NCBI GenBank assembly: GCA_003601775.1
Contig: PIYN01000014.1
Span: 10,479 to 74,478 of the forward strand
From: Candidatus Bathyarchaeota archaeon
GTDB taxonomy: Archaea; Thermoproteota; Bathyarchaeia; TCS64; PIYN01
Length of the DNA stretch: 64,000 nucleotides
Reading direction: 5' to 3'
The notes beneath the pieces are model-generated. The model searched no databases. It had not been told where the DNA came from and worked only from the letters and a program-made list of their open reading frames with translations. The position numbers and the translations under genes are program-made. This document shows positions 3,872-64,000 of the stretch, piece by piece; positions within the stretch are counted from its first letter, which is position 1; every line of letters starts with the position of its first letter.

Positions 3872-5371
3872 GTCGGGTCCAACGTCGATAGGTAGCCCTC
3901 AACAGCCTTCCTCAGGCGCCTCTTAGCCGCCTCCACGGCGGACCTCTTCCCCTCCAACTCGCCTCTACACGCCTCAAGCCTCTTCCGCCGGTCCCTGAGC
4001 ATCCTCTCCACCTCCTCCGGCCGTGGACCTCCTCGTGACCTCCTCCTCGAGAGGCTGGAGAGGGGGTCGGTCACCTCTCTGAGGAACCCCTCATCCACCT
4101 CGACCCGTCTCCCGAGGACCCTGAACGAGGCCTCCGCCACCTCATCCGGCTTGAGGTCGCGGAGGCTCCCGCCCTCCTCCAGCGTCTTCTTCACGAGGGC
4201 CGCGACGAGCCAAGGGGAGTCCCTTCTCCGCGACGAGGCCCTCCGCGACGTCGAGGGCGATGGCGAGGCTCCCCTCAACTGCCTCTCGCATCCGACCCTC
4301 CCTCACCTTCAGGGTGGAGATGATGCCCGTCATGACCTCGAGGCACGTCTTAACAGTGTCGAGGCACCTCCAGAGGGGGGGCTTCGTACCCTGCAGGTCC
4401 TGATAGTAGCCGCTGGGGACCCCCTTCACCATCGTCAGCAGCTCCATCAGGGCGCCGTAGACCTCCCCCGTCTTCCCTCGGATGAGCTCCAGGGTCGAGG
4501 GGTTCTTCTTCTGGGGCATGATGCTCGAGGAGGAGGAGTACTCGTCGGCGACCTCGACGTAGCCGAACTCCGCCGTGGACCACTCGATGAGGTCTGCGGC
4601 GACGCGGCTCAGATGGGACATGAGGATCGCGGAGACGGAGGCCGTCTCGATGGCCCAGTCCCTCCCACTCGTCGCGTCGATGGAGTTCTCGACGAGGCCG
4701 TCGAAGCCCAAGAGCTCCGTCGTCCTCCCCCTGTCGATGTTGATGCTGGTGCCGCCCACGGGCCCGGACCCGAGGGGGTTCCTGTTGACCCTGCCGTAGC
4801 AGTCCATGAGGCGCTGGAAGTCGCGGAGGAGGGCGTCGGCGTAGGCCATCAGGTAGTGGGCGAAGGTCCCGATCTGTGCATGCTGGCCGTGGGTATAGAG
4901 GATCATCACCGTCTCCCTGTGCCGATCTGCCTTCTCCAGGAGGGCCTCGACGAAGTCCAGGACTCTCTCACCCATCTCCAGGATCTCGTCCCTGACCCTG
5001 AGGCGTACGTCGACCATCACCTGGTCGTTTCGACTGCGTCCCGTGTGGAGCATCCCCCCCGCCTCTATGCCTATCTTCTTGATGACCCGGGCCTCGATGT
5101 ACTCGTGGATGTCCTCGAACTCCGCCCCTATCTCCACCTCACCCCTCCGCCACTCGCCCCGGATCTCCTCCAGCGCGGAGAGGATGAGCTTCAACGCCTC
5201 TAAGGGGATGACGCCCTGCTCGTGGAGCATGATGTCATGGGCCTCCGTCCCATCTATGTCGTCCTCGAAGATCCTGAGGTCCTCGACGACGGAGGTATGG
5301 AACCGGGCGGTCCTATCATCGAACCTCTTATCCAGCCTCGACCTGAACAAGCTGCCCGTCAGGGATACCAC
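3868..5371 (-). pseudogene. argH: argininosuccinate lyase, reading frame split by a frameshift near 4200-4240 (ORFs 4142..5371 and 3868..4278)
   Basis: The upstream ORF carries the fumarate-lyase signature GSSIMPQKKNPS and ends ...LVAEKGLP then reads out of frame. The remaining C-terminus (...LVAALVKKTLEEGGSLRDLKPDEV...) continues in another frame in the overlapping ORF. Confidence 0.8.
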
Positions 5372-49837: not shown

Positions 49838-50158
49838 ACCTCTCCTCATCTTATCCTTCCCTTTCTCATACCTGAACGGAGATCCTAAAAGGGTGACTGA
49901 GGGGATCAAGGAAGGTAATAAATCAAATCTAGAGATGGTCTGTAGAAGAACCATCAAATGAGGGATAGACCCCCTAAAGTCATGAGGCGCTCTGTCACCC
50001 TTAAACGATAGGTCAAGGATTTTATTTTAATTGAATATTTGAAATTTGAGAAGAATTCAACGATATAAGTCGAACTAAGAATTTAAATGGTTAAATTTAT
50101 ATATCAAACACCCTCCTTAAGTTAGGATTGATAGGTTAAATAAAATAGGTGGATCTGG

Positions 50159-50335
50159 ATGGGAGAGGAAGAGAAGGAGGACTATACAGTCCCTGTGTAC
50201 ATCGGCCTGAAACACTCAATCGTCGTCGAGTTGGACAATATCGCCGCCGAGTGGGGAACTACAGTGAGCAGGGCTTGTCAGAGGATCATAACAGAGTACG
50301 TGAAGAACTGGGTTAGCGAAAAGGAGAAGAAATAG
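50159..50335 (+). CDS. ribbon-helix-helix (CopG/Arc-like) small DNA-binding protein candidate (58 aa)
   Basis: Sub-threshold ORF in the AT-rich spacer: MGEEEKEDYTVPVYIGLKHSIVVELDNIAAEWGTTVSRACQRIITEYVKNWVSEKEKK, showing a beta-strand then two helices characteristic of RHH proteins. Confidence 0.4.
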   Translation: MGEEEKEDYTVPVYIGLKHSIVVELDNIAAEWGTTVSRACQRIITEYVKNWVSEKEKK

Positions 50336-50341
50336 CATCAC

Positions 50342-50551
50342 TCATCGAGGATCATCCCTTTTTGCCGTTGTTCCAAATCGAAGTTTATAATACATCACAA
50401 GGATGAAGACGCCCACAAAAGAGAGAATTAAAGTGTATAATGCGACCATTGCGGGGCCGACTTCTTCAATCAATCTTCCCAAAAAATGGGCCGCGAAGGT
50501 GATAAGTACCATCAAAAGAGTTGCGATTATCATCTGTTTACGCGTTAACAT
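50342..50551 (-). CDS. small membrane protein (2 predicted TM helices, 69 aa)
   Basis: Hydrophobic segments IIATLLMVLITFAAHFL and ALYTLILSFVGVFILVMYY; AT-rich codon usage. Confidence 0.35.
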   Translation of the reverse strand: MLTRKQMIIATLLMVLITFAAHFLGRLIEEVGPAMVALYTLILSFVGVFILVMYYKLRFGTTAKRDDPR

Positions 50552-50624
50552 AGGGTCCCTTTGTTAGTGGACTTAACGGCCATATATTAAAATATTGATG
50601 AAATATATTGTTTCTTGACGGGGA

Positions 50625-52082
50625 TTGGATAGGATGTTGAGTTTACGATATTACATTGATACGGAACTTCAAGAAGAGGCCTTTGGGGCTTTGTTTGATT
50701 TCATCATGAAGTACTATCTCTACCGAAATCCCCAGTATTATAAAGATATCAGGAGGACGCGGGTGGGGGATGTCGAGGTATTGGAGTTCACGGCTATCCC
50801 GAGGCATAAGAAGTGGTCTATGGAGGTCGAGGTGCGGGGAGTTAAGCCTCTCGAGGTGAGGATGAGGCCCAGCAACAGGCTCGTGCCTATGACCGTCATT
50901 AATAGGATAAGGACCCATCTATTGATGGGGGTCATCACCTTCGAGGAGAGCGTCGCGAGGGGCAGAACTTACTTTGCATGGGTTGGTAGGGGGAAGGCGA
51001 TCGACGAGAGGGAGCTGAGTCGAGGCAAGAAGATGATATATGCGCTCTTCACGGGGAACATGATGCTCTCTTACCTCACCTTCATCTTAGCAAGTTCCCT
51101 ATTCCTCCCGGTCTTCAAATTTTACATCCCAATAGCCTTCCTACTCTTTCAATTCGTATTAATGATTTTGTCTCACAGGATACTCATACTATCCGGAGAC
51201 TGGATAGTAGACCAGGAGAACTCCACCGTTCACATCCTAAAGTTTCACATCCCCACGAGGGTCTTGATGGAGATCCCCGCCGAGATAGGGATCAGGAGCT
51301 TGATGGAGATAAGGGAGGAGATCTACAGGAGGACCCTCAAGGTCGGGAGGAGCATAGATCGCCAGACGGCTCTTGAGGTCTTCTCAATGTATGGGATAGA
51401 CGTCGTCCCTGAGGAGACCGAGGCCAAGGCCGTGAACATCTATGAGTTGACTAAGTCTGCTGTGGAGAGGTTTCACCTCCCGATGCCGAGGTTAGCGGTG
51501 GTGAACACCGTCGTACCAAACGCCCTCTCGGCAGGTCCCAGCCCGCGGTTAGGCACGATCCTCATATCCACAGGCCTATTGGCTAGACTCGATGAGGATG
51601 AGTTACTCGGGATTCTGGGACATGAACTCAGTCACCTCAAGAACAGGGACTCCCTCGTTCTATTCATATTCTCATCGATCGCCTATCTTCTCCAGCTACG
51701 CCTATTTCCACTCCTTCTCTGGTTCTTCTGGTTCACCTTCTTCCCCTACCTCTATATCTACCTATTCATGGCCCTGATCATGGGGGGCGTCTACTTCGTA
51801 TCTAAGATCCTTGAGGCCAGGTGTGACCTCGAGTCGGCGATCTACGTAGGGAAGCCCGATGCCCTCGCAAGGGCCCTGAAGAAGCTGGGCTTTCAGAAAT
51901 TCAGATTTGAGAAGATATCCGGCATAAAGATCCAGGACTGGTTCCGATTAGAGCCTCATCCTCCAATCAGTTTCAGGATCTCCCGTCTGGAGGCCCTGGA
52001 GTCGCCGGGGAAGATCAGGTCCCCCCTCATCCAATCCATGAGGGACTGCCTCTCAGGTTTCTTCTCCTCGCTTAGAATATAA
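50625..52082 (+). CDS. membrane zinc metallopeptidase, M48 (HtpX/Ste24-like) with about 170-aa N-terminal extra domain
   Basis: HExxH in LGILGHELSHLKNRD flanked by hydrophobic helices; lower GC and A/T-ending codons compared with neighbours. Confidence 0.7.
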   Translation: MDRMLSLRYYIDTELQEEAFGALFDFIMKYYLYRNPQYYKDIRRTRVGDVEVLEFTAIPRHKKWSMEVEVRGVKPLEVRMRPSNRLVPMTVINRIRTHLLMGVITFEESVARGRTYFAWVGRGKAIDERELSRGKKMIYALFTGNMMLSYLTFILASSLFLPVFKFYIPIAFLLFQFVLMILSHRILILSGDWIVDQENSTVHILKFHIPTRVLMEIPAEIGIRSLMEIREEIYRRTLKVGRSIDRQTALEVFSMYGIDVVPEETEAKAVNIYELTKSAVERFHLPMPRLAVVNTVVPNALSAGPSPRLGTILISTGLLARLDEDELLGILGHELSHLKNRDSLVLFIFSSIAYLLQLRLFPLLLWFFWFTFFPYLYIYLFMALIMGGVYFVSKILEARCDLESAIYVGKPDALARALKKLGFQKFRFEKISGIKIQDWFRLEPHPPISFRISRLEALESPGKIRSPLIQSMRDCLSGFFSSLRI

Positions 52083-52183
52083 TCTTCTACTGTTCCCTGG
52101 GGTCCATCTCCCAGTTCCTGTAGGCTATGATCGATTCTCTTAAAAGATTAAAATAGTTAGGGACGTTATATTATCGAGTAGAT

Positions 52184-52497
52184 ATGGCTGAGAGGTATAG
52201 GGTGAAGATAACGGTCTTGAAGAGGTCGAGGCCGGAGGAGGTCTTCAGGGAGTCGCCTATCAAGGGTGGGCCGACCCGGGCCTGTGAGGGCTTTAGGAGT
52301 TCATCGTCGATGAGTCGGGGAGGATGCCGGAGGGTTTCTGCTCCTGGGCCTGGGATGATATATCCAAGGTGGTGAACGTCCTCCGCTTCGGCGGGAACTT
52401 CCCCTGGTTCGAGGAAGAAGGCATCTCCATAAACTGCTGCACCGATGGGCTTAGACCAGTCATCTTCAAGATAGAGCGCATCCAAGCGGGGGATTAA
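52184..52497 (+). pseudogene. TIGR04076-like small protein gene interrupted by a frameshift near 52295
   Basis: N-terminal part MAERYRVKITVLKRSRPEEVFRESPIKGGPTRACEGF (track ORF 52184..52375) continues in another frame as EFIVDESGRMPEGFCSWAWDDISKVVNVLRFGGNFPWFEEEGISINCCTDGLRPVIFKIERIQAGD, ending at 52497. Confidence 0.45.
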
Positions 52498-52531: not shown

Positions 52532-53671
52532 TTGAGAGTCCTCGTCTTAGGCTGCGGTAATATAGGGTCCGTCATCGCAAGGGACTTCGCCGAGTCCATG
52601 GAGGAGTCTCAGATAGTCGTCGCTGATAGGGAAGAAGAGAGGGCCAAGAAGGTAGCTTCGAGCATAGAGGATGCAGCCTGGATCACTGTAGACGCGACGG
52701 ACTACGCTGGATTAGTGGAAGTTCTCAGGGGATTCGACTTAGTCATCGGGGCGCTCCCCGGCGACTACGGCTACCAGGCCCTCAAGGCCGCCATAGAGGC
52801 GGGAGTCGATATGGTGGATGTCTCCTTCACCCCCGAGGACCCCCTTGAATTGGACAGGGCGGCAAAGGAGGCGGGGGTCACCATCATCCCCGACTGCGGT
52901 GTAGCCCCCGGCCTCTCCAATATGCTGGTGGGGTACGCCTCAGCCAAGCTCGACCGGGTTCTGGAGGCCCACATCTTGGTCGGGGGTCTTCCAGAGCATC
53001 CCGTCCCTCCACTGGGGTACACTGTCACTTGGTCGGCGGAGGGACTCATCGACGAGTACATGAGGGATGTACGCATCGTCGAGGGTGGGCGCCTCACCAT
53101 CGTCCCCGCCCTGAGTGGATTGGAGGAGATCGACTTCCCCGGCGTGGGGAGGCTCGAGGCCTTCTACACCGATGGCCTCCGGACACTTCTCCACACCCTG
53201 AGGGGGGTGGAAAGTATGTGGGAGAAGACCCTCAGGTATCCGGGTCACGTGGAGAAGATAAGGCTCCTCAAGGCACTGGGCTTCTTCGACGAGGAGCCTG
53301 TGACCGTCGGGAGGGTTGAGGTCTCTCCCCGCCTCGTGACCGCCAGGCTCTTGGAGAGGAGCCTGAGGAGGCCTGAGGTCGGCGATCTCCTCGTGATGAG
53401 GGTCGAGGTGGCCGGTGAGAGGGGGGGTGAGGAGGTTCGGTTTAGGTATTACCTCCTTGATCGATACGATAGGGAGAGGGGAGTGACGGCGATGGCGAGG
53501 ACCACGGCATACACAGCATCCATCGTCGCTGGTAAGTTGGCACGGAGCATCATCAAGGAGAGAGGGATAGTCCCGCCGGAGAGGCTCGGCATGGACGAGG
53601 GCCTCTTCAAGGAGATCCTATCGGCTCTCAGGGATAGAGGGGTAAGGGTCGAGGAGTTCCATGTAGAATAG
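52532..53671 (+). CDS. saccharopine dehydrogenase family NAD(P)-dependent oxidoreductase (paralogue 1)
   Basis: N-terminal Rossmann motif VLVLGCGNIGSV and the Sacchrp_dh C-terminal domain; 379 aa; TTG start. Confidence 0.75.
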   Translation: MRVLVLGCGNIGSVIARDFAESMEESQIVVADREEERAKKVASSIEDAAWITVDATDYAGLVEVLRGFDLVIGALPGDYGYQALKAAIEAGVDMVDVSFTPEDPLELDRAAKEAGVTIIPDCGVAPGLSNMLVGYASAKLDRVLEAHILVGGLPEHPVPPLGYTVTWSAEGLIDEYMRDVRIVEGGRLTIVPALSGLEEIDFPGVGRLEAFYTDGLRTLLHTLRGVESMWEKTLRYPGHVEKIRLLKALGFFDEEPVTVGRVEVSPRLVTARLLERSLRRPEVGDLLVMRVEVAGERGGEEVRFRYYLLDRYDRERGVTAMARTTAYTASIVAGKLARSIIKERGIVPPERLGMDEGLFKEILSALRDRGVRVEEFHVE

Positions 53672-53877
53672 GCTGACGGACGGCACCTCCGCGTTTCCAT
53701 GAGTAGAGGGTAAGTAAACGTAACTTTTTTCTAAATACTCGCCCCATTCAACTTAGATAGCGAGGGTGGGGGTTATAGAGGAGAGAGAAGTCTTCTTATG
53801 TCCCTTCTGCGGTGCCCCCTTCAGGGAAGTTATCCCCGCTGGCGTGACTCAGGTGAAATCACCCCGACGTCCTCGCC

Positions 53878-54264
53878 GTGGGGTTATGCACGAGCTGTGG
53901 GAGGAGCTACTGCGCCCGTTGCCTCCATATCATGAGGGTTACTGAGAAGACTTCTGGGCAGCTTCTATACTCCTACATCTGTCCGAGTTGCCTTGAGGAG
54001 ATCAACGCCAAGCGTGTCAGAAACTACCGTGTATGGGGCCTCCTATATCTGGCCTTCGGCTTCTTCCTCCTCCTATTTCTCGGGTTTAAGAGCGAGGAGG
54101 CCGCAGGCCTATTGGTGTGTAGTTTCATCTGTTGGGTGTTTGGGGTTGGATTCCTGGGTTATAGTGAGTACAGGAAGAGGTATCCCTGGGAGGCGCCTGA
54201 GACCGTCTACGAAAGGAACCTGAGGAAACAGGCGTTACAGAAGATGGACGTTGAGGAGGTTTAA
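53878..54264 (+). CDS. zinc-ribbon membrane protein (CTSCG..CARC / CPSC followed by two TM helices)
   Basis: 128 aa. An upstream overlapping frame (from about 53766) encodes another CPFCG zinc-knuckle, so the gene may be longer and frameshifted. Confidence 0.4.
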   Translation: MGLCTSCGRSYCARCLHIMRVTEKTSGQLLYSYICPSCLEEINAKRVRNYRVWGLLYLAFGFFLLLFLGFKSEEAAGLLVCSFICWVFGVGFLGYSEYRKRYPWEAPETVYERNLRKQALQKMDVEEV

Positions 54265-54330
54265 AGGGAGATATTAAAGTCTCCCGAGTTCTGGTCCAGG
54301 GAACGCCTGGAGAGGAAGATAAAGGGATAC

Positions 54331-55032
54331 ATGCTCGAACGGGGGCTGAGCCGCGAGGAGGCGATCAGGGAGATAGCGCTCGAGGTGGGGCTGCCTAAGC
54401 CTCCGCCGAAGCCTCCCTCTCCTGAGGAGATCGTGGCGGCGGAGAGGCGTGCGAGATTCTATGGAAAGATTACGAGGGTGGCCGCCCTCCTCCTCGGGGT
54501 CGCTACCATACTGGGAATAGCCGGCGCGGTATACACTCATGGGGTGGAGATCGGCACCGCTGAGTGCAATTGGGACGCCCTGGGTCCAGTCAGCCCGGGT
54601 ATCCACGTGATGATAACGCCCAGTGATCCGAGGACGATGAATAAAAGAGGGTTTGGGAGATACTTCGTCAATCAGGGGTCGTCAGATAACTTCGTGAGCC
54701 TGGTTATATGTGGAGGAGGTCTCTGCGATATCGAGTTCAAGGGAGCCACCCTCCACCCATTTATGAAAAAGATCAAGGTAAAAGTCACGTTCTATACCTG
54801 CGGGCGCTGTCACTCATTCCTTTTTGGTGGCTCAGCCTGCGGAGAACCCCACCGTGAGACAGTTACGGTGTTCTTGGGGAAGCTACCCCCAGGCAGTTAC
54901 CATGTGGTCGTCGATATCTACTATGGGGGCGCTGTTTATTGGGTGGAATTCAACGGGGAATGGTATCGACAGACGGAGTCGGGGACGTCTGGGGGGAGGG
55001 AGACCCTCCATGCATTCTTCACTATATACTAA
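54331..55032 (+). CDS. membrane-anchored Cys-rich protein (1 TM then 8-Cys extracytoplasmic domain)
   Basis: 233 aa; TM segment VAALLLGVATILGIAGAV; Cys pattern CNWD...CGGGLC...CGRCHSFLFGGSACGEPH. Confidence 0.4.
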   Translation: MLERGLSREEAIREIALEVGLPKPPPKPPSPEEIVAAERRARFYGKITRVAALLLGVATILGIAGAVYTHGVEIGTAECNWDALGPVSPGIHVMITPSDPRTMNKRGFGRYFVNQGSSDNFVSLVICGGGLCDIEFKGATLHPFMKKIKVKVTFYTCGRCHSFLFGGSACGEPHRETVTVFLGKLPPGSYHVVVDIYYGGAVYWVEFNGEWYRQTESGTSGGRETLHAFFTIY

Positions 55033-55113
55033 CTCCTCCCCTTCGCCCTCAGCCCTTAATCTGAGCAATAGTTTAAATATATAGTGAATCAACAGTAGGA
55101 TGGGTGAAGGTGG

Positions 55114-56286
55114 ATGAAGGTCGCCGTTCTGGGGGCTGGGCTTATGGGTCCAGCCCTCGCTTGGGACTGCACTGAGAGCGATGAGGTCTCGGAGGTTCTG
55201 CTCTGCGATATCGACCCCGTGAAGCTGGAGAGGGCCGCAGGGTGGATGGGGAACCCCGAGAAGCTCTCGACGAAGCGGCTGGATGTAACGGATAGGGAGG
55301 CCCTCGTCGAGACCTTGAGGGACTACGACGTCGTGGGCATCGCCCTCTTGAGGTGGCTGAACGTGGAGGCGATGAGGGGGGCCATCGAGGCAGGAGTAAG
55401 CGCCGTCGACTTGGCATCCCCCCCAAGGGATGCCTGGTCCGAGATCGACGGGCTCGCGAAGGAGGCGGGCGTCACGGTGATCCCGGGGTGCGGCGTCGAG
55501 CCGGGCCTCAGCGACCTCCTCGCCGCCTATGGTATGGACCAGTTGGACGAGGTTGAGGCAGTGGATATCTGGTGCGGGGGGATACCCCAAGACCCGAAGC
55601 CACCTCTGGATTACAAGATCGTGTTCGGCGGACCCTATCTCCCGCTGCGGCCTGGGATGGTGAAGGTCATCGAGGATGGGGAGGAGAGGGAGGTGAGGAG
55701 GTATACCCTCGGCGAGCCCATCGAGTTCGAGGGTATCGACAGGCCTCTGGAGTGCTTCTATGACGGCTTCCCCGAGACCCTCTATGAGCATGAGAAGTTC
55801 AAGAGGGTGAAGCGGTGCACCGAGAAGACGGTGAGATACTCGGGGTACTGTGAGAAGGTCAACTTCCTGGATCAGTGCGGCCTCCTGAGTCGGGAGCCTA
55901 TAGAGTTCAAGGGACAGAAGATCGTCCCCTTCGAGGTCTTCAGCAAGATCATCTACCCGAAGGTGAGGATGGAGGAGGGTGAGAAGGACCTCACCGTCCT
56001 GAGGGTCGTGGTGGAGGGGAGGAAGGACGGGAGGGAGACCGTATACAGGTTTGAGATGGTGGACTACTACGACGAGGAGAGGAGGATGACCTCCATGGCC
56101 CGTACGACCAGCTATACCGCTGCCATAGTCGCGCGGATGATCGGGAGGGGGGAGATCGCTGAGAAGGGGCTTGTCCCACCGGTGAGGGTCATCAGGGGGA
56201 GGCTCTTCGAGAGGCTCATGGCTGAGCTCGCAGAGAAGGGGGTCGTCATAAAGGAGAGCGTAGAGGTGAGGAGGACCCTCCCATAG
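55114..56286 (+). CDS. saccharopine dehydrogenase family NAD(P)-dependent oxidoreductase (paralogue 2)
   Basis: MKVAVLGAGLMG Rossmann start; same domain order and many shared blocks with 52532..53671 (for example MARTT(A/S)YTA(S/A)IVA). Confidence 0.75.
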   Translation: MKVAVLGAGLMGPALAWDCTESDEVSEVLLCDIDPVKLERAAGWMGNPEKLSTKRLDVTDREALVETLRDYDVVGIALLRWLNVEAMRGAIEAGVSAVDLASPPRDAWSEIDGLAKEAGVTVIPGCGVEPGLSDLLAAYGMDQLDEVEAVDIWCGGIPQDPKPPLDYKIVFGGPYLPLRPGMVKVIEDGEEREVRRYTLGEPIEFEGIDRPLECFYDGFPETLYEHEKFKRVKRCTEKTVRYSGYCEKVNFLDQCGLLSREPIEFKGQKIVPFEVFSKIIYPKVRMEEGEKDLTVLRVVVEGRKDGRETVYRFEMVDYYDEERRMTSMARTTSYTAAIVARMIGRGEIAEKGLVPPVRVIRGRLFERLMAELAEKGVVIKESVEVRRTLP

Positions 56287-56363
56287 GTCGGCACATCTTC
56301 CCTATTTTTAGGTAAATAGAGTCGAAACCCCTAAAACCCCTCTGAGGGAGATTATAACGGGAG

Positions 56364-57311
56364 TTGTTATCTATGTCCGCGGCCTTTCACGGTGCAGAGT
56401 ATTGTTGGATGAATGGCGAGGTCATCAGGACGGAGGAGGCCCTCGTCTCGGTGATGGAGCCCATCTACCTCGGGATCTTCGAGGGGATAAAGGCCTATGT
56501 GGAGGGGGATATCCTCGGCGAGGGGCGTCTAAACATCTTCCAGTGGAAGCCCCATATAGACCGGCTGTGGAGGAGCGCCGCCGTCTGCGGGATAAAGATA
56601 CCCTACACGAAGGAGGAGCTCCTGGAGACGACGAGGGAGACGATCAGGGCCAACGGCTTCAGGACGAACGTCTACATCCAACCCCGGATCTGGCCCAAGG
56701 CGGGGACGGGGCGCTACCTTGCGGAGGAGTTCCACGTCGTCATCCCCGTATGGAGGTTCGAGACCCGCCTGGGGAGAGATAACCCCCGGTTCAGCCAGGA
56801 ACGCAGGTTCATGGTCAGCTCCTGGAGGCGCATCTCCTCCGATGCCCTACCCCCACAGGCGAAGGCCTGGGCGAACTATGCGAACTCCGGCCTCGCGGCG
56901 AGGGAGGCGAGGAGGCTCGGCTACGACGGTGCGATCTTCCTGGATCGCAGGGGCTTCGTCAGCGAGGGGACGGGCGCCTGCCTCATGATAGTGAGGGATG
57001 GGAAGGTCATCACTCCGCCGGTCACCGCCTCCATCCTCGAGAGCATCACCAGGGGGACCTTCCTGAGGATGCTGCCGGAGGACCTGGGCATCCCCGTCGA
57101 GGTGAGAGATATTACACGCGTGGAGCTCTACGCCTCAGATGAAGCCTTCCTCTGTGGGACAGGGGCGGAGGTCACTCCAATAACGAGCGTGGAGGACATC
57201 CCCCTGGGAGAGGAGTACCCCGGGCCCATAACGAGGCGGATAGCGGAGTACTACGCCGAGGTCCTGGCCGGGAACGTGGAGAAGCGCAGGGGATGGCTGA
57301 CGCCCGTATGA
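56364..57311 (+). CDS. ilvE: branched-chain amino acid aminotransferase (PLP fold-type IV)
   Basis: 315 aa; fold-type IV pattern with EGTGACLMIV and the N-terminal WMNGEV region. Confidence 0.8.
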   Translation: MLSMSAAFHGAEYCWMNGEVIRTEEALVSVMEPIYLGIFEGIKAYVEGDILGEGRLNIFQWKPHIDRLWRSAAVCGIKIPYTKEELLETTRETIRANGFRTNVYIQPRIWPKAGTGRYLAEEFHVVIPVWRFETRLGRDNPRFSQERRFMVSSWRRISSDALPPQAKAWANYANSGLAAREARRLGYDGAIFLDRRGFVSEGTGACLMIVRDGKVITPPVTASILESITRGTFLRMLPEDLGIPVEVRDITRVELYASDEAFLCGTGAEVTPITSVEDIPLGEEYPGPITRRIAEYYAEVLAGNVEKRRGWLTPV

Positions 57312-57339: not shown

Positions 57340-58025
57340 TCAGGGGGACTGATGAAAGCGGACGACGAGGACCCTCACAAGGTCGGAGGTGTTCTCACAC
57401 CAGTCGGCGACCATCTCGAGGGCGTCGAAGAACATGTTGAGAAGAATCAAGAAGGGCGTCTCGAAGCCGCTGAAGTCCAGGGTGAGGAAGAGCCTCCGCG
57501 CGTCGGCATACATCTCATCAATCTCCTCCTCGATATCCTCCACCTTATAGGCGAGCTTCAGGGAGACCTCCGGGTCTATCGTGAGGCTGTTTATGCTCTT
57601 CCTCAAGGTGAGGACACACCCCTTTAACTCCCCGGCCATCCTCTCCGCCGCCCTCTTCATCTCCTCCGGGATCTTCTCGAACTCGAGGAGGTCCAAGATC
57701 CTCCCTGCCTCCTTCGCCCAGTCTGCCACCCAGTCCATAGCCCTGACGAGCTCCATGAGGTCCTCCCTGACGGTGGGCGGAAGAGTTCCCTTGGTCAGGA
57801 GGCTCTCGGCCAGCGTCCTCCTCACCCCGTCGGCCTCGCTCTCCATCCTGGAGAGCCTCTTAAAAGATGCCTCCTTCTCCTCTAAGTCCCCTCTTGATGC
57901 AGCCTTGATCATCCTCTCCAGTTCTACAACACAATCCTCCGTCAGTCCCAGGTGCTTATTCACGTTCTCGAGGACCTGCCTCTCCCTCCGGGAGCTGAAC
58001 CAGTCGAGGAGCCTCCTGCTCATAG
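57340..58025 (-). CDS. DUF47 (PhoU-like) family protein
   Basis: Helical protein with a PhoU-like two-repeat architecture. The ATG at 58025 directly abuts the stop of the upstream ABC ATPase gene; the longer track ORF (to 58098) would overlap it. Confidence 0.55.
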
Positions 58026-59102
58026 GGATTCCTCCTTCTCGAAGAGGTAGACCTTCTCCGGGGCGAAGGTGATGGAGACGGCCTCTCCTACCTCCCAAAT
58101 CCTCTCTGACATCATCAAGGGCACCTCCACGATGAACTCCTGCTTGGTCTCCAACTCAATTAGATATTCCATGAATCCCAGTAAAAACATCTTCTCCTTC
58201 ACAATTCCATGAAGGTTGTTCACGGTCTCCTCGGTCCTGGGCAGGATGTCGGCGTCCTCAGCCCTCACAACGACGTGGACCTCTGAGCCTGGGGGCATCG
58301 TCCTCCTCGAGGAGCGAAAGGTGAAGCCCTCCGGCGTCGTGACCTCCGTGAAGCCCCCGTCGGCTCGAGTCACCTCCCCGCTGAAGAGGTTGATGTCGCC
58401 CATGAAGTCCATGACGAAGAGGGTCCTCGGGTTCTCGTAGACCTCCCTCGGGGTCCCCACCTGCTCCACCGACCCCCTATGTAGGACCGCTATGCGGTCG
58501 GAGATCGTCATCGCCTCCTCCACGCTGTTAGTCACATGGATAGCCGTCAAACCCAGGTCCTTCACGATCCTCCTGAGGTCATGGGCGAGGGCGGTCCTTA
58601 TCTTCGCGTCCAAGGCCCCGAGGGGTTCGTCGAGGAGGAGGATCCTCGCCCCGGAGGTAAGGGCCCTGGCGAGGGCGACCCTCTGCTTCATCCCCCCGCT
58701 GAGCTCGTCCGGGAGCGCGTCTGGGCGGTCCTCGAGGAGGACCATCTCCAGCATCTCCTCGGCCACCTTCCTCGTCGCCTCCGGGTCCTCCCCCCTGACC
58801 CTCGGCCCGTAGCAGACGTTCTCCCAGACGTTGTAGTGGGGGAAGAGGGCGAAGGTCTCGAAGACGAAGCCGACCCTCCGATCCTCGGGTGGGACGCCCC
58901 TCATGGGCCTGCCGTCGAAGTAGATCTCCCCCTCATCGGGTTCGAGGAGCCCGGCGATGAGCATCAGGGTCGTCGTCTTCCCGCTCCCTATGGGGCCAAG
59001 GAGGGTGAAGTACTCGCCGTCACGTATCTCGAGGGAGAGGTCCCTCACGGCCACGACCTCGCCGAACCTCTTCGTCACCCCCTCCAACCTGATCTCAGGC
59101 AT
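58020..59102 (-). CDS. ABC transporter ATP-binding protein with C-terminal TOBE domain (PotA/FbpC/ModC-like), copy 2
   Basis: Walker A GPIGSGKTT, signature LSGGMKQR, Walker B LLLDEPLGALD, then about 120-aa beta-rich TOBE region. Confidence 0.85.
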   Translation of the reverse strand: MPEIRLEGVTKRFGEVVAVRDLSLEIRDGEYFTLLGPIGSGKTTTLMLIAGLLEPDEGEIYFDGRPMRGVPPEDRRVGFVFETFALFPHYNVWENVCYGPRVRGEDPEATRKVAEEMLEMVLLEDRPDALPDELSGGMKQRVALARALTSGARILLLDEPLGALDAKIRTALAHDLRRIVKDLGLTAIHVTNSVEEAMTISDRIAVLHRGSVEQVGTPREVYENPRTLFVMDFMGDINLFSGEVTRADGGFTEVTTPEGFTFRSSRRTMPPGSEVHVVVRAEDADILPRTEETVNNLHGIVKEKMFLLGFMEYLIELETKQEFIVEVPLMMSERIWEVGEAVSITFAPEKVYLFEKEESL

Positions 59103-59110
59103 AGCACCAC

Positions 59111-60226
59111 CTACCTCAGGGCGAGCTCGTACCGCAGGTCCTCAGGGTAGGGATAGACCAACACCTTCTCGGCGGGGAAGATTAGGTAGACCCTCTCCCC
59201 CTCCCCGAAGAACCTCCCCAACCTCGTGGGCTGCTTCACCTCCACGAGGTCCCCGTTGTCCAACTCGACCCTATACCTTATGATCTTCCCGAGGAAGGCC
59301 GCCCTGATCACACGCCCCGGCAGGGCGTTCAACCCCTCCGCCTTCCCCTCTTCGAGGAGTATGTTCTCACGCCTCACCCCGATGACGACCCTCGACCCGG
59401 CCCTCAGGTTCGATCCACCGGCCTCGATGAGTAGGTCCCCCCTCAGCCTCACGAGGGATCTCTCCCCGCTCCTCTCGATGACCCCCTCGAGGAAGTTCGT
59501 CTCCCCCACGAAGTTCGCGACGAAGATGGAGGCGGGCCGCTCATAGAGCTCCATGGGCGTGCCGACCTGGAGGACCCTCCCCCTCCTGAAGACTGCGATC
59601 CTGTCCGCTATCGCCATCGCCTCCTCCTGGTCGTGGGTCACGTGGATCGCGGTGAGCCCCCGGCCCTTCACCAAGCTCCTGAGGGTGAAGCGGAACCTCT
59701 CCCGCGTCTCAGGGTCCAGGGAGCCGAGGGGCTCGTCCAAGAGGAGGAGCCTCGACCCCTTCGCGAGGGCGCGGGCGATGCTGCACCTCTGGAGCTCCGG
59801 GGCGCCCAGCTCCTCAGGGTACCTATCGGCGACCTCGTTCAGTCCGGCGACCTCCAGGGCCTGGTAGACCCTCCTCTCGATCTCCTCCTCGTCCAGCCCC
59901 TGGATCATCAGGCTGTAGGCGACGTTCTCGTAGACGGTCATGAAGGGGAAGATCTCGAAGTGCTGGAAGACGAGCCCGATGTTCCTGTCCTCCGGGGGGA
60001 TTCCGGAGACGTCCCTCCCATCGATGTAGACCCTCCCCTCATCGGGCTTCGTCAACCCTGCTATGATGCGCAGGGTCGTGGTCTTCCCGCAGCCCGAGGG
60101 GCCGAGGAGGACGAAGTACTCCCCGTCCCTCACGTGGAGGTTCAGACCCTCCACTGCTATGACCCTGCCATACCGCTTCGTCACGTTCACGAGCCTCACA
60201 TCGGGCATCTCTTCACTCCCACCCAA
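59111..60226 (-). CDS. ABC transporter ATP-binding protein with C-terminal TOBE domain, copy 1
   Basis: Walker A GPSGCGKTT, signature elements and Walker B LLLDEPLGSLD; paralogous to the adjacent ATPase. Confidence 0.85.
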   Translation of the reverse strand: MGGSEEMPDVRLVNVTKRYGRVIAVEGLNLHVRDGEYFVLLGPSGCGKTTTLRIIAGLTKPDEGRVYIDGRDVSGIPPEDRNIGLVFQHFEIFPFMTVYENVAYSLMIQGLDEEEIERRVYQALEVAGLNEVADRYPEELGAPELQRCSIARALAKGSRLLLLDEPLGSLDPETRERFRFTLRSLVKGRGLTAIHVTHDQEEAMAIADRIAVFRRGRVLQVGTPMELYERPASIFVANFVGETNFLEGVIERSGERSLVRLRGDLLIEAGGSNLRAGSRVVIGVRRENILLEEGKAEGLNALPGRVIRAAFLGKIIRYRVELDNGDLVEVKQPTRLGRFFGEGERVYLIFPAEKVLVYPYPEDLRYELALR

Positions 60227-61940
60227 GGACGTACCTGAGGATGAGGAGGAGGGTGAGGGAGATGGCGATGAGGAGGACGCAGGCGAAGGCCGCCGCCGGC
60301 AGGGCGAGGGACTCGACCCACTGGACGATGAGGACCGGGACCGTCCTCGAGAGGCCCATGACGACGATGGTCGCCCCCGTCTCCCCCAGGCTCCTCGTGA
60401 AGGCCATGATCGCCGCCGCGAGGATCCCCTCCCTCATGGAGGGGAGGATGACAGTCCTGAAGACCGTCAGGGGCGGAGCCCCGAGGGTCCTCGCGGCCTC
60501 CTCAAGGTGGGGGTCGAGGCCCTCAACGACGGCGGTGAGGGGGCGGACGACGTAGGGGTAGGTGAAGCCGATGTGGACGAGGACGACCATCCAGAAGCCG
60601 GGGCCGAGGAGGTTGAGGCCCTTCGTTCCCCAGAAGAGGAAGAAGGAGAAGCCGAGGGCGGAGGTGGGGACCGTCAGGGGGATATCCACCAGGGCGTCGA
60701 GGAGGCCCCTGAGTCGGCCGAGGTTCTTCCTCACGAGCAGGAAGGCCATGGGGAGGCCCGCCAGGATGTTGACGCCTGTCGCGAGGGCCGCGACCTTGAA
60801 GGAGGTGATGATGCTGGATTGAAGGGCGGGCCACTTCTTGTCAGGGGCCAGGAAGACCTGGTAGAAGGCGCCGAGGTTGGGGTTGCCTGTGTAGGGGCTC
60901 CCTCCCCACCATCTGATGAGGTAGGTGAAGATGAAGGAGGAGGGGATGAGGATGAGGAGGACGAAGAAGGAGAAGGTCATGAGGTCCCGGAGGTGCCTCT
61001 GAGCCCGCCCGCTGAGGAGCCGCTCAGCCCTCGGCCAGGCCTCCTTGATGGGGAGGCCGAACCTCTCGGCCGAGAAGCGGAGTAGGGCGAGGAGGAAGGC
61101 TGAGATGGAGACAAGGATCATGGAGAGGAAGGCGGCGGGGGGGATCATGAGCAGCTGACGGTACTCGACAACAAGGAGGGGGGCCGTGTAGAAGGCCCCC
61201 GCGACGATGAGGGTGGCCCCAGTCTCCCCCAGGCTCCTCGTGAAGCAGAGGATGGAGCCGGCCAGGAGGCCGCTCTTTATCAGCGGCGCCGTCACCGTCC
61301 TGAAGACAGTGAAGGGGGGTGCCCCGAGGGTCCGGGCAGCGTGCTCGAGGGTCTGATCCACCGACTCTATGATCTCCTTCAGCGACCTCACGATGTAAGG
61401 GTAGGAGAAGGCGACGTGGGTGAGGATGATGAGGAGGGGGCCCCGGGAGAACAGCCCGCCCTCGAGGCCGAGAAGGCCGCCGATGCCGTCGATGCTCCCC
61501 CAGAAGAGGTAGAGGGAGAAGCCCAGGGCCGCCGTCGGGACGGCCATGGGGAGGTCGACGAGAGTGTCGACGAGGCGTTTCCCCCTGAAATCGTACCGGG
61601 CGAGGATGAGGGCCATGGGGAGCCCTATGAGGACGTCTATAAAGGTGACCACGGCCGCGATCTCGAAGGACCTGAGGAGGCCCCTCTGGATCATGTTCCA
61701 TCTGAGGGCCCCCTGCCCGATCTGGGCGAAGAAGGGATCCGCGAAGACGGTCTGGTAGACCTCACCCCAGCTCCTAAGGACCAAGAGGAAGATGGATAGG
61801 GGAGGGCCGACAACGAAGATGAGGAGGAAGAGGAGGACTAAGGCATCCCTCAGGAGGCTGAACCCCCTGCTCGAGAGCCTCCTCTCAACCCGCACCAAGA
61901 GCCTTCTCCAGCTCATCCCCCAGGCCTCGATATCAGCCAT
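60213..61940 (-). CDS. ABC transporter fused double permease (two tandem 6-TM domains)
   Basis: 575 aa with two repeats each carrying the EAA-like loop (...ARTLGAPPFTVFRTV... and ...ARTLGAPPLTVFRTV...). Confidence 0.8.
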   Translation of the reverse strand: MADIEAWGMSWRRLLVRVERRLSSRGFSLLRDALVLLFLLIFVVGPPLSIFLLVLRSWGEVYQTVFADPFFAQIGQGALRWNMIQRGLLRSFEIAAVVTFIDVLIGLPMALILARYDFRGKRLVDTLVDLPMAVPTAALGFSLYLFWGSIDGIGGLLGLEGGLFSRGPLLIILTHVAFSYPYIVRSLKEIIESVDQTLEHAARTLGAPPFTVFRTVTAPLIKSGLLAGSILCFTRSLGETGATLIVAGAFYTAPLLVVEYRQLLMIPPAAFLSMILVSISAFLLALLRFSAERFGLPIKEAWPRAERLLSGRAQRHLRDLMTFSFFVLLILIPSSFIFTYLIRWWGGSPYTGNPNLGAFYQVFLAPDKKWPALQSSIITSFKVAALATGVNILAGLPMAFLLVRKNLGRLRGLLDALVDIPLTVPTSALGFSFFLFWGTKGLNLLGPGFWMVVLVHIGFTYPYVVRPLTAVVEGLDPHLEEAARTLGAPPLTVFRTVILPSMREGILAAAIMAFTRSLGETGATIVVMGLSRTVPVLIVQWVESLALPAAAFACVLLIAISLTLLLILRYVLGWE

Positions 61941-63040
61941 AGGTCCGTTATGCTCTGGAGCACCCTCCCATCCTCCGGTGCCTCCAAGATCGGGGAGAGG
62001 ATCTCCGCTGAGACCCCGTTCTCGACGCTGAAGACCTCGGGGTCGAGGTCGACCTCGGGGTTCACGGGCCTGAATCCATGCTCCATCGCGATCCTCTGGA
62101 TCTCAGGGAGCACCAGGAAGTTGTAGAACTCCTCGGCCGCCTCCCTCTGCTCCTCTGAGACCCAGGGGGCGTTGAGGATACAGAAGGGGTGGTCGCTCAT
62201 GAGGACCCCCTCCTCGGGGTAGACGACGACGAGCCTCTGGCCCCACCTCGCCATGGGCTCCCCCTGACGATTCTTCTCTATGACGAGGTTCTCGTAGACG
62301 ATGAAGACGTTGAGGCCGGAGGGGCCACTGTTCGTCGCCTGATCCGCGAGGAAGCCGGTGCTCTCCCCATACATTACGGACCTTCCCTCGATGTCCCTCA
62401 GCCAGAGCCTCACATCCTCCCTCAACAGGTCCTCGTAGGTCAGGTTCTGGGTTGGGCATCCGGCGGCGGCGGAGACCTCCATGAGGAGGGCCATGAAGCC
62501 CGAGTTTGAGAGCTGTGGATCCGTGTGGGCGAACTTGAGGTCCGAGTCCGGGGAGACTGCCAGCCGGTGGACGGAGTCCCATCCCGTGATGTTGTGTTCC
62601 TCGGCGTATCGCTCCCACGTGGCTATGACGACTGGGGAGGCGACCAACGGCCTCCAGGACTCGACGAGCACACTCTTACCGCCGTACTCCTCCCTCCACA
62701 TGTAGTTCGCGAGGGGGATCCAGACGGAGGAGGCGGGGCTCCAGATGACGGGCTTGACCCAGCCGAGGATAATCTGATTCATCGACTCCCTCGACCCCAG
62801 GGCGATGAAGTGGATCTCCAAGGTCCTATTTGGGTGATGCTCCCTCCACCATTTCTGGAAGAGGGGGGTAACGGCCTCGATCCACCCCCTCTTCTCAGAA
62901 CCATAGACCATTGTAAGAACGACCACGTTTCCCTCCGTGGGGGCAGAGGGGAGGATCAAGAGAACCGCGAGGATGAGGAGGAGGGAGAGGAGACCCAAGT
63001 TCCTGAACCTCCTAAGCCTTCTCCTCCTCAAACGCTGCAT
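61913..63040 (-). CDS. ABC transporter substrate-binding protein (family-1 solute-binding protein), N-terminal signal/anchor
   Basis: 375 aa; basic N-terminus then hydrophobic LGLLSLLLILAVLLIL; type-II periplasmic binding fold pattern. Confidence 0.65.
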   Translation of the reverse strand: MQRLRRRRLRRFRNLGLLSLLLILAVLLILPSAPTEGNVVVLTMVYGSEKRGWIEAVTPLFQKWWREHHPNRTLEIHFIALGSRESMNQIILGWVKPVIWSPASSVWIPLANYMWREEYGGKSVLVESWRPLVASPVVIATWERYAEEHNITGWDSVHRLAVSPDSDLKFAHTDPQLSNSGFMALLMEVSAAAGCPTQNLTYEDLLREDVRLWLRDIEGRSVMYGESTGFLADQATNSGPSGLNVFIVYENLVIEKNRQGEPMARWGQRLVVVYPEEGVLMSDHPFCILNAPWVSEEQREAAEEFYNFLVLPEIQRIAMEHGFRPVNPEVDLDPEVFSVENGVSAEILSPILEAPEDGRVLQSITDLWLISRPGG

Positions 63041-63203: not shown

Positions 63204-64000
63204 ATGGAGAAGGTCAAGTCTCCCCGGATCATCACAGAGATACCCGGGCCGAAGACTAGGGAGTTCTTGAAGGAGCTGGGATTGCCGGTCGAGTATGCGC
63301 GCATCTACCCCATGCCCGTCGAGGCTGAGGGGATCTGGATGAAGGACCTCGACGGCAACATCTTCATCGACTTCATCTCCGGGAGGTGCGTCGTCAACGT
63401 AGGTCACCGGCACCCGAAGGTCGTCCAAGCGATAAAGGAACAGGCCGATAGGATCATCCATGGGACCGGCCTCCTCAGGGCGAAGCTCACGAAGCGCCTC
63501 GCCGAGGTCACCCCCGGGGACTTCCCCAAGAACGTCGTCTTCCCCCTCTCCGGCTCAGGGACCAACGACGCGGGGATAAAGCTCGCCCGATGGTCGAGTA
63601 GACGCCCCTACATCATCGCCTTCACGGGCGCCTACCACGGCGTGACCTACGGCGCCCTCTCTGTCTCCTCCTACCTCCCGAGGATGGTGAAGGGCTACGG
63701 ACCCAACCTCCCAGGCATATACCACATGCCCTACCCCTACTGCTACCGATGCCCCTTCAGGCTCGAGCACCCCGACTGCGACCTCCAGTGCCTCAGGTAC
63801 ATGGAGGACTACGCCTTTAAGAGCTACCTCCCGCCAGAGGAGGTCGCGGCCGTCCTCTTCGAGCCCATCGAGGGGGACGCGGGGTGGATCGTCCCACCCG
63901 ACGACTGGCTCCCCACTCTGAAGAGGATCTGCGATGACCATGGCATCCTCCTCATCGCCGAGGAGGTGCAGACGGGCTTCGGGCGCACCGGGAAGTGGTT
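63204..64000 (+). CDS. class III aminotransferase (4-aminobutyrate/acetylornithine/diamine aminotransferase family), 3'-truncated by window end
   Basis: ATG at 63204; MEKVKSPRIITEIPGPKTREFL...GSGTNDAGIKLAR...EPIEGDAGWIVPPDDWL...AEEVQTGFGRTGKW matches the class-III signature region; open to the window end. Confidence 0.8.
   Translation, partial: MEKVKSPRIITEIPGPKTREFLKELGLPVEYARIYPMPVEAEGIWMKDLDGNIFIDFISGRCVVNVGHRHPKVVQAIKEQADRIIHGTGLLRAKLTKRLAEVTPGDFPKNVVFPLSGSGTNDAGIKLARWSSRRPYIIAFTGAYHGVTYGALSVSSYLPRMVKGYGPNLPGIYHMPYPYCYRCPFRLEHPDCDLQCLRYMEDYAFKSYLPPEEVAAVLFEPIEGDAGWIVPPDDWLPTLKRICDDHGILLIAEEVQTGFGRTGKW

Follow-up and report, generated by a model that had tools for sequence, protein, structure and literature searches.

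What two paralogous oxidoreductases of the saccharopine-dehydrogenase family do about 1.4 kb from each other in a Candidatus Bathyarchaeota genome, and whether the genes around them belong to the same pathway, are the questions raised by the locus studied here. The locus lies in a stretch of 64 kb of contig PIYN01000014.1 (the window in the following), which comes from a metagenome-assembled genome and has a G+C content of about 0.62. The initial annotation of this stretch suggested an opine or polyamine-type pathway instead of lysine metabolism. On balance we favour another reading, in which the two enzymes, called here SDH1 and SDH2, represent two old orthologous groups in the L-lysine-6-dehydrogenase branch of the saccharopine-dehydrogenase superfamily.

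Identity of the two oxidoreductases

SDH1 is encoded at 52532-53671 on the plus strand (TTG start, 379 aa, GenBank RJS89402.1) and SDH2 at 55114-56286 on the same strand (ATG start, 390 aa, GenBank RJS89405.1); identical proteins are found in GenBank under locus tags CW700_045xx. Both contain the Sacchrp_dh_NADP domain (84 bits in SDH1 and 50 bits in SDH2) and the Sacchrp_dh_C domain (155 and 141 bits), all far over the Pfam gathering scores, and the proteins are 39% identical end to end (BLASTP, E 2e-72), which as an alignment score is far beyond chance. The coordinates, the family and the paralogy of the initial annotation are thus confirmed. By their sequences, SDH1 would be an L-lysine-6-dehydrogenase-like NAD-type oxidoreductase and SDH2 a second, anciently diverged enzyme of the same kind. 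They are not a recent duplicate pair in this reading; the two belong to two old groups, each independently widespread in Bathyarchaeia with identities of 57-80%. Relatives in other genomes were recovered with an alignment as the query, and a single-sequence query gave none. Within the SDH2 clade, the identities are 57-78% for the orthologues of Bathyarchaeia and 40-47% for homologues of Chloroflexota, and a tblastn search of SDH2 against plasmids gave only generically annotated matches of at most 32% identity.

Among characterised enzymes, PH1688, the L-lysine 6-dehydrogenase (EC 1.4.1.18) of Pyrococcus horikoshii, is nearest to SDH1 in sequence, in predicted fold and in a tree, and it appears to be nearest to SDH2 as well. 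Its structure 3ABI was the top match of each in a search against all PDB sequences, with 266 bits for SDH1 and 125 bits for SDH2. The scores of the two to fungal and human saccharopine reductases were 55-78 bits and those to carboxyspermidine dehydrogenase (CASDH) 39-64 bits, SDH2 having 64 bits to the CASDH enzyme BfCASDH and 58 bits to saccharopine reductase. No homospermidine synthase chain was present among the PDB sequence matches of SDH1 or SDH2 at E<=1e-3. AlphaFold2 models, each made from a 25-sequence alignment, had a pLDDT (predicted local distance difference test) score of 90 for SDH1 and 93.5 for SDH2, and the best PDB match of both in Foldseek was again 3ABI, with template-modelling (TM) scores of 0.87/0.94 and 42% identity for the SDH1 model and 0.80/0.89 and 29% identity for the SDH2 model. 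Next in the Foldseek ranking were CASDH and saccharopine reductase, with homospermidine synthase far behind and matched by SDH2 only (E 1e-9, TM 0.57-0.65, 12-13% identity).

A BLOSUM62 neighbour-joining tree was calculated for 147 homologues from the fetched loci, PH1688, two saccharopine reductases and BfCASDH, with CASDH chosen as the root. In this tree, calculated without support values, the SDH1 clade is sister to PH1688, and SDH2 is in a separate clade with the Chloroflexota homologues, joining the clade of PH1688 and SDH1 before the saccharopine reductases, which branch outside the clades of both SDH1 and SDH2. PH1688 shares with SDH1 and SDH2 the same two-domain architecture, a similar length (365 aa in 3ABI, compared to 450-497 aa in solved saccharopine reductase chains) and an Asp of the NAD type after beta-2, whereas each paralogue has an insertion of about 10-20 residues around 257-280 that is missing in PH1688. 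The initial annotation had pointed to carboxy(nor)spermidine dehydrogenases and homospermidine synthase-like enzymes as relatives, and when the paralogues were compared with these and with saccharopine reductases (homospermidine synthase by sequence and fold), they were nearest to none of them. Clustering with lysine-pathway saccharopine reductases, which the initial annotation had named as a result against its reading, was not seen.

Cofactor site and substrate pocket

The GxGxxG motif reads G7-C-G-N-I-G12 in SDH1 and G7-A-G-L-M-G12 in SDH2. Asp32 is present in both and invariant in both 25-sequence alignments, and at its position PH1688 also has Asp and the NADPH-dependent saccharopine reductases and CASDH have Arg (for the NADPH use of CASDH, see PMC10413350). 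Judged from these residues, the dinucleotide site of SDH1 and SDH2 is of the NAD type. The alignments of both clades also have an invariant Thr-x-Arg, which is part of the TLR motif. For LysEDH of G. stearothermophilus, which catalyses the same class of reaction as proposed for SDH1 and SDH2, it has been suggested (PMC6697735) that T240 binds the alpha-amino group of lysine and R242 its alpha-carboxylate. By numbering only, the LysEDH pocket residues V130, V172, F173, T240 and R242 resemble V128, V170, F171, T239 and R241 of SDH2 with an offset of 1-2, whereas H181 and Y238 of LysEDH have no obvious counterpart, SDH2 having R179 and E237. It may be that this characterised bacterial lysine dehydrogenase carries an IVF motif of the SDH2 type, again by residue numbering only.

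The substrate loops separate the two paralogues. SDH1 keeps the PH1688 blocks GALPG, DVSF, G.APGLSN, TWS..LI.EY.R, DGLR and TLR.PGH, both in the clade consensus and in the window sequence. The clade consensus of SDH2 has a conserved set of its own (IALLRW, PGCGVEPGL, KIVFGG..PLRPG, DGFPE and TVRY.GY), and SDH2 departs from PH1688 in the TWS..LIEEY, DGLR and GALPG blocks, the TWS..LIEEY and DGLR loops being replaced by IVFGG..PLRPG and DGFPE, and retains only T-x-R and G.xPGL. It is probable that SDH1 acts on L-lysine or a close analogue, and it is the better candidate of the two for a true lysine 6-dehydrogenase, because nearly all the motif blocks of PH1688 are kept in it. Given the different signature in its substrate loops, SDH2 probably has a different but related substrate. 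In the mechanism that we propose, each enzyme would bind NAD+ via GxGxxG and Asp32 and, as suggested by the chemistry of the family, take a hydride from the terminal CH2-N carbon of an amine that bears a carboxylate group; the conserved Thr-x-Arg is predicted to hold this carboxylate. The products would be an aldehyde and ammonia or an amine, and from L-lysine 2-aminoadipate 6-semialdehyde (piperideine-6-carboxylate) would be formed. The role would be catabolic, bringing amino-acid-type carbon and nitrogen into fermentation.

Some points weigh against this assignment. SDH2 is only 29% identical to PH1688 and the loops lining its pocket differ, and for SDH2 "lysine" may therefore be wrong. The tree, besides having no support values, contains partial reference sequences and is without bacterial lysine dehydrogenases and homospermidine synthase. 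Neither an aminoadipate-semialdehyde dehydrogenase nor any other obvious next step was found among the open reading frames (ORFs) examined at 35-64 kb of the window, and the promoter-like boxes considered below were assigned by eye.

Linkage of the orthologues to MttB methyltransferases

The SDH orthologues in other genomes are often located in operons of MttB methyltransferases, whereas no such description of a lysine dehydrogenase was found in the searchable literature. The order of genes in two such operons (L064 and L065) is corrinoid protein, MttB (PF06253, uninterrupted 481 aa), SDH1 and MtrH, with RACo alongside, and their SDH1 orthologues are 78% and 68% identical to SDH1 of the window, respectively. 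The clusters of SDH1 and MttB are located at 5829-11676 in L064, 6487-10027 in L065 and 4919-15569 in L103. The genes are tightly packed in L065, with a gap of 2 nt between MttB and SDH1 and an overlap of 7 nt between SDH1 and MtrH, and the situation is similar in L103, L129 and L142. The frequency of the linkage was estimated from an unbiased sample of 80 metagenome loci (L067-L146) anchored on SDH1-type genes. MttB is immediately upstream of SDH1 on the same strand in 19 of the 73 loci having an upstream flank, and in 15 of 53 when a flank of at least 1.5 kb was required; some part of the MttB/corrinoid/MtrH/RACo system is found in 22 of the 80 loci.

The MttB-linked members are spread over several SDH1 subclades of the neighbour-joining tree, including the one nearest to the window, and the nearest SDH1 relatives with another synteny (L064 and L068, 78-80% identical) have the MttB system. 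The identities of SDH1 and MttB co-vary over a range of 52-97% (r = 0.96, 17 gene pairs), which fits an old linkage, though any two vertically inherited genes would correlate. The clusters of L100 and L103 contain 2-3 MttB paralogues together with class-I/II and class-III aminotransferases, an M20 deacylase, Amidohydro_3 and transporters of the major facilitator superfamily (MFS).

SDH2 has a similar linkage in part of its clade. In a subclade of Bathyarchaeia (L013, L015, L016, L041 and L061), the divergent gene upstream is an MttB orthologous to the one linked to SDH1 (about 870 of 1081 bits), and in the Chloroflexota loci L028 and L029 three tandem SDH2-like genes are found by a DDAH/ADI-like gene, with a divergent MttB and M20 and an amino-acid permease. 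Other contexts of SDH2 are acyl-CoA dehydrogenase, electron-transfer flavoprotein (ETF) and beta-oxidation genes in Bathyarchaeia, and an Opp-type ATP-binding cassette (ABC) system with Amidohydro_3 in Chloroflexota. In L002 (8001-10428) and L004 (9935-12427), a third paralogue of 388 aa, which branches deeply, comes in tandem after the SDH2 orthologue. This pair is flanked by genes for acyl-CoA dehydrogenase, ETF alpha and beta, SIR2, a polysaccharide-deacetylase-like protein, 3-hydroxyacyl-CoA dehydrogenase, enoyl-CoA hydratase and thiolase, a setting that would fit the breakdown of lysine carbon by way of glutaryl- or crotonyl-CoA.

The MttB protein has 266 bits to glycine betaine methyltransferase (2QNE/9YCE) and is under the NCBIfam cut-off for trimethylamine methyltransferase. 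The clusters holding SDH1 have the exact gene composition of the non-pyrrolysine MttB/corrinoid/MtrH(MtgA)/RACo systems that demethylate quaternary amines (MtgB, MtcB, MtpB and MtyB). In contrast, the described MttB systems, including the clusters of TACK and Asgard archaea, have no embedded dehydrogenase of the Sacchrp_dh family; for the published archaeal mtrH-mttB-corrinoid clusters the substrate was left open and no dehydrogenase was mentioned (PMC9723716; bioRxiv 10.1101/2023.11.21.568159). No report of MttB paired with saccharopine dehydrogenase, lysine dehydrogenase or trimethyllysine was found in the searchable literature. The linkage suggests that the SDH1-type enzymes and one subclade of SDH2 are amine dehydrogenases acting on demethylated lysine-like substrates. 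In the 64-kb window itself, no gene or remnant of MttB, corrinoid protein (CoP), MtrH or RACo was detected (phmmer; tblastn at E<=10 gave noise only).

Conservation and transcription of the pair

The position of SDH1 and SDH2 side by side raises the possibility that the two work together, as a heteromer or in consecutive steps of a pathway, and that their adjacency has been selected and is not accidental. We consider this improbable. It is true that three independently assembled records of this lineage agree in placing the genes next to each other on one strand (L067 as far as it runs), and that BfCASDH is a dimer (PMC10413350), which we take as pointing to dimers among the enzymes of the family. 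One and the same MttB orthologue is paired with SDH1 or with SDH2 depending on the lineage, which suggests related roles, and tandem SDH2-type paralogues occur in L002 and L004 and in L028 and L029 of Chloroflexota. However, outside this lineage an SDH2-type gene was found within 8 kb of the SDH1-type gene in none of the 80 SDH1 loci, and an SDH1-type gene within 10 kb of the SDH2-type gene in none of 60 genome loci anchored on SDH2-type genes. Moreover, an unrelated gene with its own TATA-like box stands between SDH1 and SDH2, SDH2 has a box of its own, and with complete NAD-binding and motif sets in both, neither looks like a non-catalytic partner.

The complete order of SDH1, middle gene (MID) and SDH2 was seen only in the window and in contig L001, while contig L067 matches up to its end inside MID. 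The locus is not a conserved operon and the adjacency of SDH1 and SDH2 is lineage-specific, because the neighbourhood of SDH1, SDH2 and the downstream ilvE does not recur in about 140 related loci. An ilvE homologue is absent from all of the about 140 other SDH loci and a class-III aminotransferase recurs in them only sporadically, and both were rejected as conserved partners. The initial annotation had let its pathway reading depend on a conserved neighbourhood, and this reading fails because such conservation is absent, the pair being found only in this species-level lineage.

A/T-rich TATA-like boxes, assigned by eye, are located 25-40 nt upstream of four genes: the small TIGR04076-family gene before SDH1 (box at 52140-52159), MID (53725-53737), SDH2 and ilvE (56305-56318). 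The box of SDH2, TTTAAATATATA at 55072-55083 on the plus strand, is about 30 nt upstream of the start. Directly before SDH1, no TATA-like box was seen when the sequence was inspected by eye. The stop of the TIGR04076 gene is 35 nt before the SDH1 start with GGAG between them, and these two genes were probably co-transcribed. The boxes suggest archaeal promoters, with SDH1 and SDH2 as separate transcription units.

The gene between SDH1 and SDH2

The initial annotation placed two genes between the oxidoreductases, one for a zinc-ribbon protein with two transmembrane segments and one for a membrane-anchored protein with eight Cys. These fragments (53878-54264 and 54331-55032) are the middle and C-terminal parts of one dead gene. 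MID covers 53766-55032 on the plus strand as a pseudogene of a rare, lineage-restricted membrane protein in three ORF fragments, the first of them at 53766-53945. Contig L001 (ERZ650341), with DNA 98-99% identical, has a single intact ORF of 444 aa between SDH1 and SDH2, and a MID of 443-444 aa was seen in five or more further assemblies. The intact protein consists of an N-terminal double zinc ribbon, two transmembrane segments, a helical linker, one transmembrane segment and a Cys-rich C-terminal domain. Compared to L001, 68 bp are missing from the window at about 53857/53858, by which the frame is shifted and CRYCGAIILVPPRLGGPVQRCPN is lost, and TAA stands at 54262-54264 in place of TAT and splits the remainder of the gene. 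The deletion removes CRYCG...CPN, including C32, Y34, C35, G36, V41-P43 and C52-N54, none of which varies among the six homologue clusters. The possible CPFCG zinc knuckle that had been suspected from about 53766 in another frame, by way of a frameshift, is the true N-terminus of MID, separated from the rest by this deletion.

Upstream, directly before SDH1, a 10-bp deletion at 52294/52295 has broken the TIGR04076-family gene (52184-52497, plus strand). L001 has the intact gene (4993-5316, 107 aa; 84.7 bits against a cut-off of 33), and in the window it forms two overlapping ORFs in different frames, with 10 bases fewer than L001 in a gapped alignment. If the two lesions of MID are counted too, about 2.1 kb of the window contain three disruptions. 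The TIGR04076 gene was rejected as a conserved partner of SDH1, as it is found in few loci only and at a varying distance.

If the lesions of MID and the frameshift of the TIGR04076 gene were artefacts of assembly or sequencing, the locus would really encode an intact protein of 444 aa. This is very doubtful, even though the source of the window is a metagenome-assembled genome, the initial annotation hinted at other frameshifts in it, and the 10-bp deletion was seen only in the window record, the TIGR04076 gene being intact in L067. The MID lesions are real alleles and not artefacts of the record, because both the 68-bp deletion and the TAA are present in L067, an independently assembled JGI contig with 30 other mismatches to the window. 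Another JGI record has the same 110-aa MID fragment, and a loss of 68 bp and a point nonsense mutation are atypical of homopolymer error. In the NCBI annotation the fragments are hypothetical proteins of 110 aa and 233 aa.

The MID family is tiny, with 6 clusters among 5.8e9 proteins and 8 representatives of its C-terminal domain among 1.84e9 proteins, and neither Pfam nor NCBIfam gave a match for the intact protein. MID was also considered as a conserved linker or functional partner of the SDH genes, and this was rejected because the sole full-length distant homologue (59% identity; L147, 4703-6028) is in another context with no SDH gene nearby. There it is located between SelA/DgaE-like enzymes dependent on pyridoxal phosphate together with an SBP_bac_11 gene, on one side, and a class-III aminotransferase, on the other. 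These families are also found a few kb from MID in the window, and the context in L147 hints at an older synteny that received the block of SDH2 and ilvE as an insertion.

Flanking genes and other pathways

Downstream of SDH2, ilvE encodes a class IV branched-chain amino-acid aminotransferase (56364-57311, plus strand; Pfam Aminotran_4; 267 bits against the TIGR01122 cut-off of 246), and a class-III aminotransferase starts at 63204 and runs past the end of the window, both as reported in the initial annotation. Between them, an ABC system on the minus strand (57340-63040) contains two ATPases, a fused double permease of 575 aa, an SBP_bac_11 protein and a PhoU_div/TIGR00153 gene. This had been described as a transporter of the polyamine or iron type. 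The fused permease passes the NCBIfam cut-offs of ModB and TIGR01581 (molybdate/sulfate/tungstate type) and is far under the Pot cut-offs, and as far as its sequence tells, the system looks like an importer of oxyanions (molybdate, tungstate or sulfate type) rather than of polyamines or iron. Upstream of the SDH locus are genes for an M48 peptidase, a helix-turn-helix regulator, 2-oxoacid:ferredoxin oxidoreductase subunits, orotidine monophosphate decarboxylase, TatD and glycosyltransferases. The G+C content is 0.47 at 50001-52000 and 0.57-0.65 elsewhere in the window. This stretch, which covers the gene of the M48-peptidase membrane protein (50625-52082) and a small ORF with two transmembrane segments (50342-50551, minus strand), may have been inserted from a foreign source.

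A polyamine or opine-type pathway, with a carboxy(nor)spermidine dehydrogenase or homospermidine-synthase-like enzyme served by the ABC transporter and the class-III aminotransferase, is highly unlikely. The superfamily includes CASDH and homospermidine synthase, the downstream ATPases belong to a family that includes the PotA type, an aminotransferase of class III does begin at 63204, and SDH2 has, in addition to its 64 bits to BfCASDH, a weak partial match of 45 bits to the carboxynorspermidine synthase model NF043000. However, the cut-off of that model is 800 bits, and SDH1 reaches 21. CASDH and carboxynorspermidine dehydrogenase (BfCASDH 8DEB; NF043000) have the fold of the superfamily in common with SDH1 and SDH2 (TM about 0.8) and would act by the same kind of chemistry on a CH2-N carbon, but identity is 18-22%, and after beta-2 SDH1 and SDH2 have Asp32, not the Ser-Arg of the NADPH type found in CASDH or Cys-Arg. 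The triad His228-Glu229-Glu230 of BfCASDH, called central to catalysis (PMC10413350), is absent, as YHEELE of BfCASDH aligns to TDGLRT in SDH1 and DGFPET in SDH2. For homospermidine synthase there is no sequence match at the threshold given above, and the match in fold is weak (E 1e-9, TM about 0.6). Nor do the neighbours agree with such a pathway: the permease passes the ModB and TIGR01581 and not the PotB/C cut-offs and lies beside a PhoU_div gene, no carboxy(nor)spermidine decarboxylase was seen among the ORFs examined at 35-64 kb or among the recurrent neighbours of the about 140 related loci, and in those loci the ABC system, the class-III aminotransferase (apart from its sporadic occurrence) and ilvE do not recur as neighbours. 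The pathway proposed in the initial annotation is not supported, with both paralogues nearest to the lysine dehydrogenase PH1688, the CASDH triad missing and the transporter not Pot-like.

The Pfam family names of SDH1 and SDH2, their scores of 58-78 bits to the saccharopine reductase domains of fungi and humans and the TLRY.G motif common to saccharopine reductases might suggest that the two are true saccharopine reductases or dehydrogenases in the alpha-aminoadipate lysine pathway. This is scarcely credible, since these scores are 2-3.4 times below those to lysine dehydrogenase, the saccharopine reductases fall outside both clades of the tree without supports, the chains of 379 and 390 aa are short compared to the 450-497 aa of the solved reductases, Asp32 stands where NADPH-dependent enzymes have Arg, and no LYS1-type partner was seen among the ORFs examined at 35-64 kb.

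Proposed role and significance

Returning to the lysine-6-dehydrogenase-like reading, the natural substrate may be a demethylated lysine-like amine, because the orthologues are partners in MttB operons of related genomes. We propose tentatively that methylated lysine-like amines are demethylated by MttB to give the natural substrates, the SDH1-type enzymes and one SDH2 subclade being the oxidative partner of the MttB/corrinoid/MtrH/RACo system. One to three MttB paralogues would strip methyl groups from the methylated omega-amine of an amino-acid-like compound, N-epsilon-methylated lysine being the simplest guess, and the methyl groups would be passed to tetrahydromethanopterin or tetrahydrofolate. 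With NAD+, the lysine-dehydrogenase-like enzyme would then oxidise the CH2-N carbon, whether freed or still dimethylated, so that an aldehyde and ammonia or an amine are formed, and the recurrent aminotransferases, M20 deacylases and MFS transporters would finish the route. SDH1 and SDH2 of the window would be two orphaned members of it.

For the window the result is mainly a correction: the locus is not a polyamine or opine operon, the two supposed Cys-rich proteins are one dead gene, and the two oxidoreductases are lysine-6-dehydrogenase-like enzymes brought together by a lineage-specific accident. The locus itself is ordinary, and the lysine-dehydrogenase-like genes in MttB operons elsewhere are the lead worth following. 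If the proposal is true, the dehydrogenase offers direct access to the substrate of a methyltransferase clade that has been described from both TACK and Asgard archaea. An amine dehydrogenase of known chemistry, tightly coupled to MttB in a quarter of the SDH1-type loci, would narrow the candidates for the MttB substrate to lysine-like omega-amines. Because Bathyarchaeia are among the most abundant archaea of sediments, a sink for methylated amines that bypasses methanogens would matter for the cycling of carbon and nitrogen.

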